From Escherichia coli (lineage in GTDB: Bacteria > Pseudomonadota > Gammaproteobacteria > Enterobacterales > Enterobacteriaceae), in NCBI RefSeq assembly GCF_016903815.1, contig NZ_CP069973.1: a stretch of 64,000 nt of DNA; one strand, 5' to 3'. Positions within the stretch are counted from its first letter, which is position 1; every line of letters starts with the position of its first letter. The notes below the pieces were generated by a model. The model made no database searches and was not told the origin of the DNA. It saw only the letters and a program-made list of their open reading frames with translations. Shown here piece by piece: positions 844 to 35,742 of this stretch. Position numbers and translations under genes: made by a program.

Positions 844-3734
<2,891 letters not shown>

Positions 3735-5177: not shown

Positions 5178-5580
5178 GCAATCTCCTCACCATCAAATAG
5201 ATGGCGTTTTCCTGATGAATATCATGCAGCATACTTAACAGCATTGTACTCCATTCCTTCTGCTGCGAAGTTTGCGCAGCCCGGGCTTTATCGAATGCGT
5301 TGGCCAGCATCGGCACATGGTTAATGTCGATGACGATCTCACCATATTTCGGCACGCCTTCCATTTTGCGGCGGGCTTCGCTGCCCGCCTCCAGAGTGGC
5401 AATCCATGCCAGATATTCATCCCACGGACAGGTGAGCGCCGCTTCCAGGCAATCGATAACCCCAAGGTGGTGACCAATCGCCAGGCTGTAATAGACCACC
5501 TGCTGCGCCTCGGCGGGCGTGGCATCGTTCTCATCAATAAATTTACGGCTCAGTTGACTGAACACCACCTTTTCACTCAT
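5170..5580 (-). CDS. hycH: Formate hydrogenlyase maturation protein
   Basis: 136-aa ORF in hyc operon order. Confidence 0.85.
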
Positions 5581-26836: not shown

Positions 26837-27613
26837 ATGCCTCGTTTTGCAGCTAATTTATCCATGATGTTCACCGAAGTGCCTTTTATTGAACGCTTCG
26901 CCGCAGCGCGAAAAGCCGGGTTCGATGCTGTGGAATTTCTGTTTCCCTATGACTACTCCACCCTGCAAATCCAAAAGCAACTGGAGCAAAACCATCTGAC
27001 ACTGGCGCTGTTCAATACCGCTCCCGGAGATATTAATGCGGGGGAATGGGGATTATCCGCCCTTCCCGGACGTGAGCACGAAGCACACGCAGACATCGAC
27101 CTGGCACTGGAATATGCATTGGCGCTCAATTGTGAACAAGTCCATGTGATGGCAGGCGTCGTGCCCGCTGGCGAAGATGCTGAACGGTACAGGGCAGTAT
27201 TTATCGATAATCTCCGCTACGCTGCCGACCGCTTTGCGCCACACGGCAAGCGAATATTAGTTGAAGCACTCAGCCCCGGCGTTAAGCCTCATTATCTCTT
27301 CTCCAGCCAGTATCAGGCACTGGCTATTGTTGAAGAAGTTGCGCGAGATAACGTGTTTATTCAACTAGATACTTTTCATGCGCAAAAAGTAGATGGCAAC
27401 CTGACGCATTTAATCCGCGACTACGCCGGGAAATATGCGCACGTACAAATTGCCGGACTACCTGATCGACATGAACCGGACGATGGAGAAATCAACTATC
27501 CGTGGCTGTTCCGCCTGTTCGATGAGGTGGGATATCAGGGCTGGATCGGTTGTGAATATAAACCTCGTGGCCTCACCGAAGAAGGGCTTGGCTGGTTTGA
27601 CGCCTGGCGCTAA
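26837..27613 (+). CDS. ygbM: Hydroxypyruvate-isomerase-like (TIM barrel) 2-oxo-tetronate isomerase
   Basis: 258-aa ORF. Confidence 0.8.
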
Positions 27614-27701
27614 TTCGTTAAATCCCTAATTACAACGTACCCATACATCCCCCCATCTACGGATGGGGTAGGTTAACTATAACTTTCAGACAGGGTTTCC
27701 C

Positions 27702-29066
27702 ATGTCCACAATTACATTGTTATGCATTGCGTTAACTGGCGTAATCATGCTGTTGCTGCTGGTCATCAAGGCAAAGGTACAACCATTCGTTGCTCTGCTC
27801 CTCGTCAGCCTGTTAGTCGCACTTGCGGCGGGTATACCGGCGGGCGAAGTGGGTAAAGTGATGATCGCCGGGATGGGCGGTGTGCTTGGTTCCGTCACTA
27901 TTATTATTGGTCTGGGCGCTATGCTGGGGCGTATGATCGAACACTCTGGTGGTGCAGAGTCACTGGCTAATTATTTCAGTCGCAAGTTAGGTGACAAACG
28001 AACTATCGCTGCGCTGACTCTGGCAGCGTTCTTCCTCGGTATTCCCGTCTTCTTTGATGTCGGCTTTATTATTCTTGCGCCAATCATTTACGGTTTTGCC
28101 AAGGTTGCCAAAATATCGCCACTCAAATTTGGCCTGCCTGTCGCTGGAATCATGCTAACTGTTCATGTGGCGGTACCGCCGCATCCAGGCCCTGTCGCCG
28201 CAGCGGGGTTACTCCACGCAGACATCGGCTGGCTAACCATCATCGGTATTGCGATTTCTATTCCCGTAGGGATTGTTGGCTACTTTGCAGCGAAAATAAT
28301 CAATAAGTGCCAATATGCGATGTCGGTGGAAGTACTGGAACAGATGCAACTGGCTCCGGCCAGTGAGGAAGGCGCGACAAAATTAAGCGATAAAATAAAT
28401 CCACCGGGCGTCGCGCTGGTCACCTCGCTAATTGTTATTCCTATCGCGATTATCATGGCGGGTACGGTTTCCGCAACACTGATGCCGCCTTCGCATCCCC
28501 TGCTTGGTACGCTACAGCTGATCGGCTCACCAATGGTAGCTCTAATGATTGCGCTGGTGCTGGCATTCTGGTTATTGGCTTTACGTCGCGGCTGGAGCTT
28601 ACAACACACCAGCGACATTATGGGCTCAGCCCTTCCCACCGCGGCGGTAGTGATTTTGGTTACTGGTGCTGGAGGGGTATTTGGCAAAGTGCTGGTGGAA
28701 TCGGGCGTCGGCAAAGCCCTTGCCAACATGCTACAAATGATTGACCTGCCTCTGTTACCAGCCGCATTTATTATTTCACTGGCGCTGCGTGCATCGCAGG
28801 GGTCAGCAACCGTAGCAATCCTGACAACCGGCGGGTTACTCTCAGAAGCGGTGATGGGATTGAATCCGATTCAGTGCGTATTGGTGACGCTGGCAGCCTG
28901 CTTTGGTGGGCTTGGCGCGTCACATATTAATGACTCAGGGTTCTGGATTGTGACCAAATATCTGGGGTTATCGGTAGCAGACGGTCTGAAAACCTGGACA
29001 GTGTTAACGACCATTCTCGGTTTTACCGGATTCTTAATTACCTGGTGCGTATGGGCGGTAATTTGA
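27702..29066 (+). CDS. ygbN: GntP-family transporter
   Basis: 454-aa polytopic membrane ORF. Confidence 0.85.
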   Translation: MSTITLLCIALTGVIMLLLLVIKAKVQPFVALLLVSLLVALAAGIPAGEVGKVMIAGMGGVLGSVTIIIGLGAMLGRMIEHSGGAESLANYFSRKLGDKRTIAALTLAAFFLGIPVFFDVGFIILAPIIYGFAKVAKISPLKFGLPVAGIMLTVHVAVPPHPGPVAAAGLLHADIGWLTIIGIAISIPVGIVGYFAAKIINKCQYAMSVEVLEQMQLAPASEEGATKLSDKINPPGVALVTSLIVIPIAIIMAGTVSATLMPPSHPLLGTLQLIGSPMVALMIALVLAFWLLALRRGWSLQHTSDIMGSALPTAAVVILVTGAGGVFGKVLVESGVGKALANMLQMIDLPLLPAAFIISLALRASQGSATVAILTTGGLLSEAVMGLNPIQCVLVTLAACFGGLGASHINDSGFWIVTKYLGLSVADGLKTWTVLTTILGFTGFLITWCVWAVI

Positions 29067-29072
29067 CCTTAA

Positions 29073-29106
29073 TAAAAAGGTCCGATGGGCATCGGACCTT
29101 TTATTT
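29073..29106. terminator. Bidirectional rho-independent terminator between ygbN and decarboxylase operon
   Basis: AAAAA-ggtccgat-gggc-atcggacc-TTTTATTT; 8-bp GC-rich stem flanked by A and T runs. Confidence 0.7.
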
Positions 29107-29341
29107 AGCGCTTACCTTCCGCCAGCAGCGGCGGGATGCTCGGCACCATCGGCGCGTCATCAATATCTTTCTGTGTCATGCGGAACGCTTCGGGATAATG
29201 TTCGCGGCTGGTGCGGCGTAGCGGTTCGGTATCGCGCCAGGTATAGAGGCAATGCTGGCACTGGTAGACCGTCCAGACATCTTTTACCGGCGATTTCGCC
29301 ATCACTTCAATCTGTTCATCAGCACAACGTGGACAAATCAT
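29105..29341 (-). CDS. ecdD: Small subunit D of non-oxidative hydroxyarylic acid decarboxylase
   Basis: 78 aa with zinc-ribbon-like CPRC...CQHC; directly downstream of UbiD-like gene. Confidence 0.7.
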   Translation of the reverse strand: MICPRCADEQIEVMAKSPVKDVWTVYQCQHCLYTWRDTEPLRRTSREHYPEAFRMTQKDIDDAPMVPSIPPLLAEGKR

Positions 29342-29351
29342 CTTGTTCTCC

Positions 29352-30779
29352 TTATTTACGTGCGGCCAGCATAGCGGTCAGTTTTTCAGCCCAGGCTTTG
29401 GTTTCCGGTAAATCCACCACCGGCTGGCTGTAGTGACCACGGTTGTCCGGGGCGACAGGCGTGGTGGCGTCGATAATCAGCTTGTCGGTGATACCGGCCG
29501 GGCTTGAGCCGGGGTCGAGTTCCAGCACGGACATATTCGGCAACTGCACCAAATCCCCTGCCGGGTTCACTTTCGAAGAGAGCGCCCACATCACCTGCGG
29601 CAGGTTGAACGGATCAACGTCTTCATCGACCATAATCACCATCTTCACGTAGCCCAGACCGTGTGGCGTGGTCATCGCACGCAGGCCCACCGCGCGGGCA
29701 AAGCCACCGTAGCGTTTTTTGGTGGAGATAATCGCCAGCAGGCCGTGGGTGTACATGGCGTTCACCGCCTGCACTTCCGGGAACTCGGCTTTCAGTTGCT
29801 GATACAGCGGCACGCAGGTGGCTGGCCCCATCAGGTAGTCGATTTCTGTCCACGGCATGCCGAGGTACAGCGATTCGAAAATCGGCCTGGTGCGGTAAGA
29901 GACTTTATCGATACGCACCACGGTCATGTTACGCCCGCCGGAGTAGTGCCCGGTAAACTCACCGAACGGCCCTTCGATTTCGCGTTTACGACTTTCGATG
30001 ACCCCTTCGAGGATCACTTCTGAACCCCACGGCACATCAAAACCAGTCAGCGGGGCGGTGGCGATCGGGTACGGGCTTTCACGCAGCGCGCCTGCCATTT
30101 CGTACTCGGACTGATCATATTTCAGCGGCGTGGCCCCCATCAGCGTGATGATCGGATCGTTACCCAAGGTGATGGCAATCGGCAGATCTTCACCGCGTTC
30201 TTCCGCTTTATGCAGATGCAGGGCGATATCGTGCATCGGCACCGGTTGCAGGCCGAGCTTACGTTTGCCCTTCACTTCCATACGATAGATACCGACGTTC
30301 TGCTTGCCGAAGTTATCCGGGTCGAGCGGATCGCGGGAAACCACGCACGCTTTGTCGAGATAGAAACCGCCATCGCCATCGTTTAAACGAAACAGCGGCA
30401 GGATATCGAACAGGTTGATCTCGTCGCCATCGACGGTGTTCTGCGCCCAGGCTGGATTGGCGCGGCGCTCCGGGGCAATCGGGAAGTTATCCCAGCGGCG
30501 GATAAACTCATCAATCTGCTTTTTGACCGGGGTGTTTGGCGGCAGGCCGAGGGAAATCGCGTGGTTCTGCCAGGAACCGATGGTATTCATCGCCACACGG
30601 GCATCGGTAAAGCCGCGAATATTGTCAAACCACAGCGCGGGCGCGCCGTCGCCGATACGCCCGGTGGCGTTAGCTGCTGCTGCCAGATCCGGTTCCGCGT
30701 TCACCTCTTCGCTGATTTTCAGTAACTGTCCGTGGTCATCAAGCGCCTGTAAAAAGCTGCGTAAATCATCAAATGCCAT
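29352..30779 (-). CDS. ecdC: UbiD-family (prFMN-dependent) aromatic acid decarboxylase subunit C
   Basis: 475 aa; UbiD-family similarity throughout. Confidence 0.8.
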   Translation of the reverse strand: MAFDDLRSFLQALDDHGQLLKISEEVNAEPDLAAAANATGRIGDGAPALWFDNIRGFTDARVAMNTIGSWQNHAISLGLPPNTPVKKQIDEFIRRWDNFPIAPERRANPAWAQNTVDGDEINLFDILPLFRLNDGDGGFYLDKACVVSRDPLDPDNFGKQNVGIYRMEVKGKRKLGLQPVPMHDIALHLHKAEERGEDLPIAITLGNDPIITLMGATPLKYDQSEYEMAGALRESPYPIATAPLTGFDVPWGSEVILEGVIESRKREIEGPFGEFTGHYSGGRNMTVVRIDKVSYRTRPIFESLYLGMPWTEIDYLMGPATCVPLYQQLKAEFPEVQAVNAMYTHGLLAIISTKKRYGGFARAVGLRAMTTPHGLGYVKMVIMVDEDVDPFNLPQVMWALSSKVNPAGDLVQLPNMSVLELDPGSSPAGITDKLIIDATTPVAPDNRGHYSQPVVDLPETKAWAEKLTAMLAARK

Positions 30780-31372
30780 TATTCATTCTCCTGAGAAAAA
30801 TTCCGGACCTGCGGCAATCCTTGCCAGCGCCTGGCGTGGGGATGTTCGAGGCCAAATTGATCCAGCACGCGGGCTACCACGTGGTGGACAATGTCATCTA
30901 CCGTTTCGGGATGGTTATAAAAGGCAGGCATCGGCGGCACCATCGCCACGCCCATGCGTGAAAGTGCGAGCATATTTTCGAGATGGATGGTGCTAAGCGG
31001 CATTTCACGCGGCACCAGCACTAGTTTGCGGCCTTCTTTGAGCACGACGTCCGCCGCGCGCCCTACCAGGCCATCGGCGTAACCGACACGGATACCGGCG
31101 AGCGTTTTCATACTGCACGGAATAACGATCATGCCGTCGGTACGAAAGGAACCTGAGGAGATGGTCGCCGCCTGATCCGCCGGGTTATGACTGAAGTCTG
31201 CGAGGGCAGCAACATCGCGAGCGCTGTAAGGCGTTTCCAGTTCAATGGTGGTTTTCGCCCACTTCGACATCACCAGATGAGTCTCGACATTCGGCATCTC
31301 CCGCAGCGCTTGCAGTAATGCCACCCCAAGAGGCGCACCGGTAGCCCCTGTCATCCCGACGATCAGTCTCAT
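30779..31372 (-). CDS. ecdB: UbiX-like flavin prenyltransferase (decarboxylase subunit B)
   Basis: 197 aa; UbiX/Pad1 motifs (GMTGATGA, IVIPCSMKTLAG). Confidence 0.8.
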   Translation of the reverse strand: MRLIVGMTGATGAPLGVALLQALREMPNVETHLVMSKWAKTTIELETPYSARDVAALADFSHNPADQAATISSGSFRTDGMIVIPCSMKTLAGIRVGYADGLVGRAADVVLKEGRKLVLVPREMPLSTIHLENMLALSRMGVAMVPPMPAFYNHPETVDDIVHHVVARVLDQFGLEHPHARRWQGLPQVRNFSQENE

Positions 31373-31518
31373 TGTTTATTCTCTTAATTGTTCGTATACG
31401 AACGTTATTATTAAAATACGCCTCTGTTTTCATCGCGGCAAGCACTGAAAAGTAACAACATCTTCTTCGTCACTGAAAAACCGCTATGATAGCAGCAGAT
31501 AGTTTGCCCGGAGTTTAC

Positions 31519-31926
31519 ATGGCGTTACGAAATAAAGCGTTCCATCAGTTACGACAGCTTTTTCAGCAGCACACGGCTCGCTGGCAGCACGAGTTACCTG
31601 ACCTCACCAAACCACAGTACGCGGTGATGCGCGCCATTGCTGATAAGCCTGGTATCGAACAGGTGGCACTGATAGAAGCAGCAGTCAGCACCAAAGCAAC
31701 GCTGGCAGAAATGTTGGCAAGAATGGAAAATCGTGGCTTAGTCAGACGTGAACATGACGCCGCTGACAAGCGGCGTCGCTTTGTCTGGCTGACTGCCGAA
31801 GGAGAAAAGGTACTTGCTGCGGCGATCCCCATTGGTGACAGTGTGGATGAGGAATTTTTGGGGCGTTTGAGTGCAGAAGAGAAGGAGCTGTTTATGCAGT
31901 TGGTGCGCAAGATGATGAGCAAATAG
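31519..31926 (+). CDS. MarR-family transcriptional regulator, divergent from decarboxylase operon
   Basis: Winged-helix MarR signature; start placed at ATG 31519 with GGAG RBS (ORF track begins 31486). Confidence 0.75.
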   Translation: MALRNKAFHQLRQLFQQHTARWQHELPDLTKPQYAVMRAIADKPGIEQVALIEAAVSTKATLAEMLARMENRGLVRREHDAADKRRRFVWLTAEGEKVLAAAIPIGDSVDEEFLGRLSAEEKELFMQLVRKMMSK

Positions 31927-31989
31927 GATGCTGATTGCCGGGTAGGACGCTGACGAGTCTTATCCAGGCGACAAAACACACCGACTTCC

Positions 31990-32028
31990 CAAACAAAAGA
32001 AAAAGGCCAGCCTCGCTTGAGACTGGCC
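31990..32028 (-). terminator. rpoS rho-independent terminator
   Basis: ggccag...ctggcc stem followed on minus strand by TTTTTCTTTTGTTT. Confidence 0.6.
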
Positions 32029-32046
32029 TTTCTGACAGATGCTTAC

Positions 32047-33039
32047 TTACTCGCGGAACAGCGCTTCGATATTCAGCCCCTGCGTTTGCAGGATTTCGCG
32101 CAAACGGCGCAGGCCTTCAACCTGAATCTGGCGAACACGTTCACGGGTGAGGCCAATTTCACGACCTACATCTTCCAGTGTTGCCGCTTCGTACCCCAGC
32201 AAACCGAATCGACGTGCCAGTACTTCACGCTGTTTGGCGTTCAGCTCGAACAGCCATTTGACGATGCTCTGCTTCATATCGTCATCTTGCGTGGTATCTT
32301 CCGGACCGTTCTCTTTTTCATCGGCCAGGATGTCCAGCAACGCTTTTTCGGAATCACCACCCAGCGGGGTGTCTACCGAGGTAATGCGCTCGTTAAGACG
32401 AAGCATACGGCTGACGTCATCAACTGGCTTATCCAGTTGCTCTGCGATCTCTTCCGCACTTGGTTCGTGGTCCAGTTTATGGGACAACTCGCGTGCGGTT
32501 CGCAGGTAAACGTTCAGCTCCTTTACGATGTGAATCGGCAAACGAATAGTACGGGTTTGGTTCATAATCGCCCGTTCGATCGTCTGGCGAATCCACCAGG
32601 TTGCGTATGTTGAGAAGCGGAAACCACGTTCCGGGTCAAACTTCTCTACCGCGCGGATCAGCCCCAGGTTGCCCTCTTCGATCAGGTCCAGCAACGCCAG
32701 ACCACGATTGCCATAACGGCGGGCAATTTTTACCACCAGACGCAAGTTACTCTCGATCATCCGGCGGCGGGAGGCAACATCTCCACGCAGTGCGCGACGC
32801 GCAAAATAAACTTCTTCTTCGGCCGTTAACAGTGGTGAATAACCAATCTCACCAAGGTAAAGCTGAGTCGCGTCCAACACACGCTGTGTGGCTCCCTGCG
32901 ATAACAGTTCCTCTTCGGCCAAATCGTTATCACTGGGTTCCTCTTCTACTAAGGCCTTTTCGTCAAAAACCTCAACTCCGTTCTCATCAAATTCCGCATC
33001 TTCATTTAAATCATGAACTTTCAGCGTATTCTGACTCAT
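32047..33039 (-). CDS. rpoS: RNA polymerase sigma-S (sigma-38)
   Basis: 330 aa from [14 protein letters not shown]; sigma-70 family regions 2-4; full-length with no internal stop. Confidence 0.95.
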
Positions 33040-33101
33040 AAGGTGGCTCCTACCCGTGATCCCTTGACGGAACATTCAAGCAAAAGCCTGGTTCCGCCGA
33101 T

Positions 33102-34241
33102 TTATCGCTGCGGCAAATAACGCAGCGGGTTTACGGATTTCCCCTTGTAACGAATTTCAAAATGCAAGCGTGTTGAACTGGTTCCGGTGCTACCCATGGT
33201 TGCTATTTTTTGCCCCGCCTTCACTTCTTGTTGTTCCCGGACCAGCATTGTGTCGTTATGGGCGTAGGCACTCAGGTAATCATCATTATGTTTGATGATA
33301 ATCAGATTACCGTAGCCGCGCAGCGCGTTACCGGCATAAACAACGCGGCCATCTGCGGTCGCGATAATTGCCTGTCCTTTGCTGCCTGCGATATCAATCC
33401 CCTTGTTGCCCCCCTCAGAAGCGCCAAAGGTTTCGATCACTTTGCCCTCAGTCGGCCAGCGCCAGGTGGAGATAGGCGTACTGGTTGATGTACTGCTGAC
33501 AGTCGGCTCGGTTGTGCTTGCTGTTGGCACCGTTACAGGCGCTGTGACCGTGGTCGCAGTTGGCTTGTTGTTCGGCAACATTTTGTTAGCACTCTGTTCA
33601 CCCGAAGACTCAGAATACGTAATTGTCGGTTGCGACGCAACAGCAACGGTGGAATTTTGTGCAGGCTTGATCACAACTCCTTGCTCTGCTGCGTCGGCCT
33701 GGGTAATGGCATTTCCGCCAGTGATTGGCGTACCGGAAGCATTACCCACCTGCAAGGTCTGACCAACGTTCAGCGCGTATGGTGCCTGAATATTGTTGCG
33801 CTGAGCAAGGTCACGGAAATCGTTGCCAGTAATCCAGGCGATATAGAAAAGTGTGTCGCCTTTTTTCACGGTATAGGTACTGCCGCTATAACTGCCTTTC
33901 GGAATGTTCCCATACTGACGGTTATAGACGATGCGTCCGTTTTCCATCTGTACCGGCTGCTGAGCTACTGGCTGCACCGGCTGGATTTGCGGTTGTTGAG
34001 TGGCCTGAATTTGTGGCTGCTGTACCGGCTGAATTTGCGGTTGCTGAGCTGTAGACGTCGTTCCCATTTTCGGCGGCGGCGTAATCAACATACCAGAATT
34101 GGTATTTGCAGGCGCATTGCCATTAACGGAGCTGACCGGTGCCGGTGGATTTGAAGTGTCAGAACAGCCTGCCAGCCATAGCGAAACCAGTGACAAAGCC
34201 GCAATGCGGCGAACGGTGAATTTTGGGCTTCCCGCGCTCAT
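33102..34241 (-). CDS. nlpD: Murein hydrolase activator NlpD (LysM + M23 peptidase lipoprotein)
   Basis: 379 aa; lipobox LAGCS, Gln/Pro-rich repeats, LysM ([13 protein letters not shown]), C-terminal M23 domain. Confidence 0.9.
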
Positions 34242-34380
34242 TTATCCCCCAGGAAAAATTGGTTAATAACCAGTGACATAATTACCGTGCAAGGCACCAT
34301 ACTGAACACTGGAAAAGATGTTCACGATACGCTGACCTGCGGCAAAATAACCAGGAAAAATCCAGGTATTTCCTCACGTT

Positions 34381-35742
<1,362 letters not shown>

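Follow-up and report, generated by a model that had tools for sequence, protein, structure and literature searches.

A Known ecdBCD-hosA Decarboxylase Module Between ygbN and rpoS in Escherichia coli

Gene Content and Boundaries of the Island

The window, meaning the whole 64,000-nucleotide stretch of Escherichia coli DNA that was analysed, carries an island of about 2.9 kb between ygbN and rpoS, where the genes run ygbN - D - C - B - hosA - rpoS. An earlier note, made from the letters alone, had described three co-oriented genes and a divergent MarR-family gene at this place, and all four open reading frames were found there. The features of the locus are:

29075..29102, both strands: bidirectional intrinsic terminator hairpin, common to ygbN (+) and ecdD (-)
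29105..29341, minus strand: ecdD (vdcD/kpdD type), zinc-ribbon subunit predicted to activate the C subunit, 78 aa
29352..30779, minus strand: ecdC (yclC/vdcC/kpdC type), predicted UbiD-family prFMN-dependent decarboxylase, catalytic subunit, 475 aa
30779..31372, minus strand: ecdB (pad1/vdcB/kpdB type), predicted UbiX-family flavin prenyltransferase, 197 aa
31390..31403, no strand assigned: putative operator of HosA, GTTCGTATACGAAC, a 14-bp palindrome with perfect symmetry, 17 nt ahead of the ecdB start codon
31519..31926, plus strand: hosA (probable start), predicted MarR/SlyA-family repressor, divergent from ecdB
31934..31972, plus strand: REP-like hairpin, last feature of the island, between hosA and the rpoS terminator; -20.6 kcal/mol, z -2.6
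32000..32033, minus strand: rpoS intrinsic terminator, conserved right flank; 15-pair stem followed by a T-run; -24.5 kcal/mol, z -5.1

In K-12-type genomes, ygbN adjoins rpoS directly, and the alignment to K-12 replaces window positions 29106-31999 by 8 bp (GTGCACAG) flanked by the same ygbN and rpoS terminators, the left flank being K-12 sequence up to 29105 and the right flank K-12 sequence from 32001 on. The slot is therefore empty in K-12, as the earlier note had it, and the comparison of the interval that it proposed places the island in O157:H7 and not in K-12.

The hairpin at the left end folds at -17.3 and -18.7 kcal/mol on the two strands (z -3.5 and -4.4), with 0 of 200 shuffles folding equally well and an A-run and a T-run on either side, and the inverted repeat around it spans 29070-29107 in the repeat search. 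The consensus promoter scan of 28950-32150 overlooked it, but folding confirmed the hairpin. Both the bidirectional hairpin and the rpoS terminator had been proposed as bounds of the island, and both structures hold; the left one, however, is conserved flank that is present in K-12 too, and the island starts at 29106. At the other side, the island ends at about 31999, some 75 bp past the hosA stop codon, and includes the hairpin at 31934..31972, which we take to be REP-like, having 1 mismatch to a REP core. That core occurs 2 times in the window versus 0 expected. Rfam at the gathering threshold gave no match in 27000-35000, and the repeat search found no repeats flanking the island, the direct and long-range inverted pairs that it listed resembling chance matches. 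The G+C content is 55.6% for the island, 57.5% for the BCD genes and 52.9% for the window.

The Decarboxylase Genes

Subunits were assigned by a score over the curated NCBIfam cut-off, VdcC also by scores under the cut-offs of its sister families, and the three minus-strand genes all stand above the cut-offs for VdcB, VdcC and VdcD. EcdB reaches 312.5 bits on NF041206 VdcB (cut-off 290; residues 2-185 cover the whole profile, positions 1-184 of 184) and 246 bits on TIGR00421, the UbiX subfamily (cut-off 108.9), and its best solved-structure match is the UbiX-like 1SBZ, over its full length (E 4.8e-128, residues 1-197); its score on the BagM/FevK model is high at 341 bits, yet under the cut-off of 420. 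EcdC scores 790.5 bits on NF041204 VdcC (cut-off 650) and lies under the cut-offs of the UbiD equivalog (173.7 versus 788), the SCO4490 type (202.5 versus 495.9) and the phenylphosphate carboxylase model (147.8 versus 469). It matches 7AE4_A from the ShdC/ShdD (VdcCD) complex over residues 3-471 (E 2e-160, 538 bits), and its R166 (NVGIYR) and E269/E274 (EGPFGEF) correspond in the alignment to the E-R-E residues of ShVdcC, whose catalytic glutamate is E278. EcdD, with 121.2 bits on NF041205 VdcD (cut-off 30), aligns to ShdD of 7AE4 (chain a, 46 bits), and its cysteines 3, 6, 28 and 31, forming two CXXC knuckles, occupy the positions of the ShVdcD zinc ligands.

The arrangement has the anatomy of an operon: ecdB and ecdC overlap by 1 base (TAATG), ecdD starts 10 nt past ecdC behind its own ribosome-binding site (AAGGAG), and one terminator lies past ecdD. 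The cut-offs passed and the structures 1SBZ and 7AE4 matched bear out the UbiX-like, UbiD-like and zinc-ribbon identities suggested earlier, and the ecdBCD/kpdBCD type of hydroxyarylic acid decarboxylase agrees with the same cut-offs and with C and D being the O157:H7 proteins. Thus, B, C and D are supported as predicted subunits of a non-oxidative hydroxyarylic acid decarboxylase, and the activity of the holoenzyme, decarboxylation of 4-hydroxybenzoate or vanillate with all three subunits needed, would follow by analogy from the literature on Klebsiella, Bacillus and Sedimentibacter homologues. As described by Marshall et al. (2021, PMC8379154), VdcC depends for its activity on VdcD, which holds the loops bearing the ERE residues, and, according to a paper citing Lupa 2005, 4-hydroxybenzoate is converted to phenol by the lysate of E. 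coli carrying kpdBCD.

The Regulator and Its Putative Operator

The MarR-family frame is open from 31486 to 31926 on the plus strand (146 aa), and this longest form begins 11 codons upstream of the annotated HosA start. The start of hosA is probably the ATG at 31519, giving 135 aa, because RefSeq places 408-bp genes there and the alignment to the solved HosA chain begins at residue 12. The assignment to the MarR family in the earlier note agrees with a profile match and with PDB 8AGA, 'Transcriptional regulator HosA' (E 4.2e-83, query residues 12-145, 134 residues). On sequence grounds, the divergent gene is identified as HosA, being near-identical to the characterised protein and adjoining the decarboxylase operon. 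The name of the regulator, its ligand 4-hydroxybenzoate, the operator GTTCGTATACGAAC and the structures (8AGA and others) go beyond what had been noted before.

ecdB and hosA diverge from a control region of 146 bp, where GTTCGTATACGAAC and its flanks are identical to the published HosA site and probes. The palindrome is perfect in O157, Salmonella and Pantoea and has 1 mismatch in Klebsiella, and the remaining spacer has diverged. According to papers citing Roy & Ranjan 2016, HosA represses the decarboxylase operon and its own gene from a site downstream of the transcription start and is released by 4-hydroxybenzoate (4-HBA), with a Kd of ~4.7 uM; in strain UMN026, 4-HBA is reported to induce the operon. 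No sigma-70-like site came up in the consensus promoter scan of 28950-32150, and so none in the control region; where the promoter lies relative to the operator is therefore taken from the cited paper. By eye, a minus-strand TTGCCG-17 nt-TATTTT element (8/12 match) would start transcription just upstream of the operator.

Distribution and Comparison with Known Systems

Among 5426 complete E. coli genomes, the island is present in 2378 (about 44%), the empty K-12 junction in 1944 and another insert, as in strain CFT073, in 1040, and each of the 5423 E. coli matches lies on the chromosome, at the one locus. This census agrees with the published polymorphism of the mutS-rpoS interval, which the earlier note had put forward. 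The window corresponds to 'pattern IV' of Ewers et al. (2014), with o454/ygbN present plus kpdDCB-slyA, as ygbN is kept and the decarboxylase genes and regulator lie between it and rpoS; a 2.9-kb hosA-pad1-yclC segment is likewise already in the published literature on this interval.

The closest described system is EcdBCD of O157:H7 (Pad1/YclC/EcdD; Lupa et al. 2005; Pad1 structure 1SBZ), with the same genes at the same locus adjoining rpoS. EcdC and EcdD are 100% identical to their O157:H7 counterparts, EcdB 193/197 (98%) and HosA 129/135 (96%), with an island DNA identity of 96-97.5%. The work of Lupa reportedly also names the O157:H7 genes. O157:H7 lacks ygbI-ygbN, so that pphB abuts ecdD via a different hairpin, whereas the window retains ygbN and the K-12-type hairpin. 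The island has diverged from O157:H7 by 2.5-3.9%, roughly three to four times as much as rpoS (0.9%). At about 3.9% nucleotide divergence, ecdC and ecdD together differ in 63 codons synonymously and in 0 non-synonymously, a pattern that supports purifying selection as the probable cause. HosA is the same protein as that of E. coli UMN026 and E2348/69 (Ferrandiz 2005; Roy & Ranjan 2016, via citing papers; 8AGA and others), with the same operator and the same promoter surroundings as the published probes, and nothing of substance differs.

More distantly, VdcCD/ShdCD of Sedimentibacter hydroxybenzoicus and BsdBCD of Bacillus subtilis (Marshall et al. 2021) follow the same three-subunit logic, with a C subunit of the same hexameric UbiD-type family. 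VdcCD/ShdCD are distant orthologues of EcdCD (538 bits for C, only 46 bits for D); R36 and E39 of ShVdcD are kept in EcdD, but the salt-bridge R12 of ShVdcD is E12 in EcdD. KpdBCD of Klebsiella pneumoniae and the Salmonella module (one record each) have the same four genes in the same mutS-rpoS interval, and EcdC is 97-98% identical in protein to both counterparts. The module is inverted in Salmonella Senftenberg, D facing rpoS and the regulator facing ygbI, and in K. pneumoniae, DUF4440, MFS and LysR genes lie between rpoS and the regulator, with D near mutS. At the nucleotide level, the module is 74-87% identical to Salmonella and 70-86% to K. pneumoniae (rpoS, 93% and 86%), and the four genes also occur on a Pantoea megaplasmid.

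Proposed Mode of Action

With a probability of roughly 0.93, the segment is the known ecdBCD-hosA module of the mutS-rpoS interval (synonyms pad1-yclC, kpdBCD-slyA/kpdR and hadBCD) and works as proposed here; gene identity, conserved residues, the operator and presence or absence among strains were read directly, and activity, induction and the transcriptional roadblock are taken from near-identical or homologous proteins. EcdB, of the UbiX type, would prenylate reduced FMN to prFMN, with which the UbiD-type EcdC would convert 4-hydroxybenzoate and related phenolic acids to phenol and CO2, reversibly and without oxygen. The four-cysteine zinc ribbon of EcdD is expected to bind EcdC beside the loops carrying the catalytic residues, and activity would need it. 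When the substrate is absent, a HosA dimer on GTTCGTATACGAAC, downstream of the promoter and ahead of the ecdB ribosome-binding site, would block transcription; binding of 4-hydroxybenzoate would then release HosA from the DNA, switching the operon on. In E. coli, the module may serve phenolic-acid detoxification, phenol production in the gut or the reverse carboxylation.

A further consequence can be imagined at the other end of the regulator gene, as hosA and rpoS are transcribed towards each other and no plus-strand terminator belonging to hosA came out of the 28950-32150 scan; in this argument, the sole hairpin between hosA and rpoS is the rpoS terminator, whose plus-strand tail is weak (TTTCTGAC). 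HosA self-repression, release by 4-hydroxybenzoate and the lack of an own terminator mean that read-through could therefore arise. That exposure to phenolic acids drives hosA read-through antisense to the rpoS 3' end is a very long shot; if true, it would tie phenolic-acid sensing to the amount of RpoS, the general stress sigma factor, in the 44% of complete E. coli genomes bearing the island.

Alternative Explanations

As members of the UbiX and UbiD superfamilies, B and C might be taken for a spare pair for ubiquinone biosynthesis, acting on 3-polyprenyl-4-hydroxybenzoate and not on free phenolic acids. In favour of this, 4-hydroxybenzoate, the inducer, is also the ring precursor of ubiquinone. 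EcdC, however, scores 173.7 bits on the UbiD equivalog (cut-off 788) versus 790.5 on VdcC, K-12 makes ubiquinone without the island, and the module includes a D subunit, which the ubiquinone enzyme is not known to have. This role is therefore very improbable, although EcdB could add to the prFMN pool. The idea of decaying remnants with no present function in E. coli draws on the absence of the genes from over half of the complete genomes; it is hardly credible given four intact reading frames, the purely synonymous codon differences of ecdC and ecdD from O157 (63, versus 0 non-synonymous), the conserved operator and catalytic residues and the 4-HBA induction reported for UMN026.

Recent gain by horizontal transfer, as a mobile genomic island, is unlikely, if less far-fetched: transfer was claimed in a 2024 preprint for hosA from Shigella, and the slightly raised G+C of the island (55.6%; BCD 57.5%, window 52.9%), its patchiness among strains and the same four-gene module on the Pantoea megaplasmid point the same way. 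Against it, the window ORFs include neither an integrase nor a transposase, and the repeat search showed no direct repeats at the flanks and no terminal inverted repeats; the 5423 E. coli matches all share one chromosomal locus, the module lies between mutS and rpoS in the one Salmonella and the one K. pneumoniae record, and its identity to both is not above that of rpoS. The single locus, the shared interval, these identities and the lack of mobility genes fit a segment that has stayed in the interval for a long time and been lost or replaced in particular lineages, or else one whose alleles are swapped between strains by homologous recombination in the flanking sequences.

Biological Meaning

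The island is already known, and there is nothing new in its identity or arrangement. The small additions made here are the slot census in 5426 complete genomes, the conservation of the operator across genera, the 0 amino-acid changes in EcdC and EcdD relative to O157 and the module in the same interval of Salmonella (inverted) and Klebsiella. Muconate and phenol bioengineering make use of this enzyme type, and 4-hydroxybenzoate biosensors make use of the repressor. For E. coli itself, the segment is textbook strain variation adjoining rpoS and serves as a typing marker.

Gene organization and boundaries of the island

The three co-oriented genes and the divergent MarR-type gene described in the earlier note between ygbN and rpoS are reproduced, with exactly the same coordinates, in the ORF list. 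The interval contains the following features:

27702-29066, + strand: ygbN, left neighbour of the island (NCBIfam equivalog)
29075-29102, both strands: hairpin left of ecdD (folding z -3.5 and -4.4), bordered at opposite ends by an A-run and a T-run
29105-29341, - strand: ecdD (D), 78 aa (ORF list)
29352-30779, - strand: ecdC (C), 475 aa (ORF list)
30779-31372, - strand: ecdB (B), 197 aa (ORF list)
31486-31926, + strand: MarR-type ORF, hosA (ORF list)
31934-31972: REP-like hairpin between hosA and the rpoS terminator, the final feature inside the island
32000-32033: rpoS terminator (terminator scan and folding)
32047-33075, - strand: rpoS, right neighbour (NCBIfam equivalog; longest ORF)

The longest rpoS ORF begins at an upstream ATG (342 aa), and the annotated protein has 330 aa. 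A compact B-C-D operon is indicated by the one-base overlap joining ecdB and ecdC (TAATG), the 10 nt separating the end of ecdC from ecdD and the AAGGAG ribosome-binding site serving ecdD.

In a K-12-type chromosome (4.63 Mb), the ygbN-rpoS gap is 93 bp. Base by base, the window is identical to K-12 through 29105 and again from 32001, and 8 bp (GTGCACAG) replace 29106-31999, about 2.9 kb, so that the slot proposed to be empty in K-12 is indeed so. Regarding the proposed bounds, a hairpin foldable on both strands and the rpoS terminator at 32000-32033 are present; however, due to the identity through 29105, the left hairpin belongs to the flank common to K-12 and lies outside the island. At the other end, the scan of 31927-32046 found no terminator of hosA's own on the + strand. 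The sole hairpin before rpoS in that scan is the rpoS terminator, with a weak + strand tail, TTTCTGAC, and read-through of hosA antisense to rpoS is conceivable.

Identity of the decarboxylase subunits

The assignment to the ecdBCD/kpdBCD type holds for all three subunits, as each exceeds the cut-off of its NCBIfam model: ecdB with 312.5 bits (VdcB, 290), ecdC with 790.5 bits (VdcC, 650) and ecdD with 121.2 bits (VdcD, 30). Against three sister models (ubiquinone UbiD, menaquinone decarboxylase and phenylphosphate carboxylase), ecdC falls well short of the cut-off. The structural matches agree: the top solved structure for EcdB, over its full length, is 1SBZ (E 4.8e-128), Pad1 from E. coli O157:H7, and the two chains of the Sedimentibacter VdcCD complex (7AE4) align with EcdC and EcdD. 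EcdD cysteines 3, 6, 28 and 31 occupy the zinc-ligand positions of ShVdcD, the Sedimentibacter D subunit, and the two residues engaged in salt bridges with the C subunit, R36 and E39, are kept, whereas R12 is replaced by E12. In EcdC, R166, E269 and E274 align with the catalytic triad, E274 standing opposite the catalytic E278 of ShVdcC.

HosA and its operator

Judging by sequence, the MarR-type regulator is HosA, since the solved structure that it matches best is listed as 'Transcriptional regulator HosA' (8AGA, with six more entries; E 4.2e-83). As the 8AGA alignment begins at query residue 12, in line with the RefSeq annotation, the hosA start codon is likely at 31519. As cited in later papers, Roy and Ranjan (2016) described HosA as a repressor of the decarboxylase operon and of itself, with a palindromic target downstream of the transcription start, from which 4-hydroxybenzoate frees it. 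A perfect 14-bp palindrome, GTTCGTATACGAAC, is located at 31390-31403, with the ecdB start codon 17 nt downstream, and the published HosA probes have the same site and flanking bases. Upstream of the B gene, this operator is also perfect in O157:H7 (L002 5298-5311), Salmonella Senftenberg (L004 5377-5390) and a Pantoea megaplasmid (L006 4373-4386), while the K. pneumoniae site differs at a single position (GTTCGTACACGAAC; L005, spacer 5235-5407); the operator is kept across genera despite the diverged surrounding spacer. The K. pneumoniae spacer also carries a second, partial copy further upstream (CGTATACGAAC).

Distribution and states of the slot

Among 5426 complete E. coli genomes searched, the island is found in 2378, of which 806 have an O157-type junction, with pphB abutting ecdD and the ygb genes absent; by subtraction, about 1570 carry the window arrangement or a variant of it. 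The empty K-12 junction occurs in 1944 genomes and an alternative 2.1-kb insert (MBL-fold hydrolase and flavodoxin), CFT073 style, in 1040. Together, these three main states cover 5362 of the 5426, and all matches are chromosomal. The states correspond to the patterns that Ewers et al. (2014) numbered I-IV, with pattern IV represented by the window, which bears out the description of the mutS-rpoS interval as a polymorphic hotspot. A '2.9 kb sequence harboring hosA, pad1 and yclC' is credited to Herbelin et al. (2000) in later literature. The observation of the earlier note is confirmed and its interpretation supported; in all aspects testable by computation, the feature had been described before.

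A sequence related to the REP-like hairpin (GATTGCC...GACGCTGACGCGTCTATCCGG) lies directly before the rpoS terminator in the CFT073-type insert (L003, about 3630-3665), which is otherwise unrelated; therefore, both alternative inserts have a common rpoS-proximal end. The E. coli AR_0067 sequence matches window 28900-32200 at 100% identity apart from an IS200C between ygbN and ecdD (L007 781-1239), close to the common terminator hairpin; Ewers et al. (2014) likewise described an IS200 in the ygbN-rpoS gap of an ST405 strain.

Constraint and origin of the module

EcdC and EcdD are 100% identical to those of O157:H7, compared to 193/197 residues for EcdB and 129/135 for HosA. Their genes differ by 54 (ecdC) and 9 (ecdD) codons, all 63 synonymous (window 29105-30779 vs L002 3013-4687). 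The adjacent rpoS differs at 9/993 bases (0.9%) and the island by 2.5-3.9%, three to four times as much. The sequences therefore indicate strong constraint on ecdC and ecdD, with alleles predating those of the flank. RpoS is intact in the window and identical to the O157 protein; in the CFT073 comparison record, rpoS is frameshifted (L003 3807-4804).

Neither a mobility gene (ORF list) nor a flanking repeat (repeat search) was found at the island. The same four genes occur in Salmonella Senftenberg NCTC10384 between ygbI and rpoS, inverted relative to E. coli (L004 4833-8712), with the ecdD-type gene convergent with rpoS and the regulator facing ygbI. The K. pneumoniae module occupies the rpoS-mutS interval and is oriented as in E. 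coli, but three extra genes stand beside rpoS. The module is also present on the Pantoea megaplasmid. The Salmonella and K. pneumoniae contexts come from plasmid-collection records that are evidently chromosomes or chromosome pieces. Several of the PLSDB entries (NZ_OL790696.1, NZ_CP141089.1, NZ_CP134663.1, CP125156.1 and NZ_LN868944.1) are 4.8-5.4 Mb, or 728 kb with rpoS, nlpD, surE and ispDF, which inflates the plasmid tally of this operon.

The module shares 70-87% nucleotide identity with Salmonella and Klebsiella, and rpoS 93% and 86%, respectively. Because module identity is not above that of rpoS, the comparison, of one genome per genus, favours a long-standing presence in the interval over recent import. 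A 2024 preprint claiming transfer from Shigella is at odds with this reading.

Proposed mechanism

By analogy with homologues, for which these steps have been demonstrated, EcdB would produce prenylated FMN, with which EcdC would reversibly decarboxylate 4-hydroxybenzoate-type acids. EcdD would bind EcdC and be needed for activity, steadying the loops that bear the catalytic residues. Lysate of E. coli with the Klebsiella kpdBCD genes is reported to convert 4-hydroxybenzoate to phenol (Lupa 2005, as cited in later work). HosA would hold the operon off until substrate arrives.
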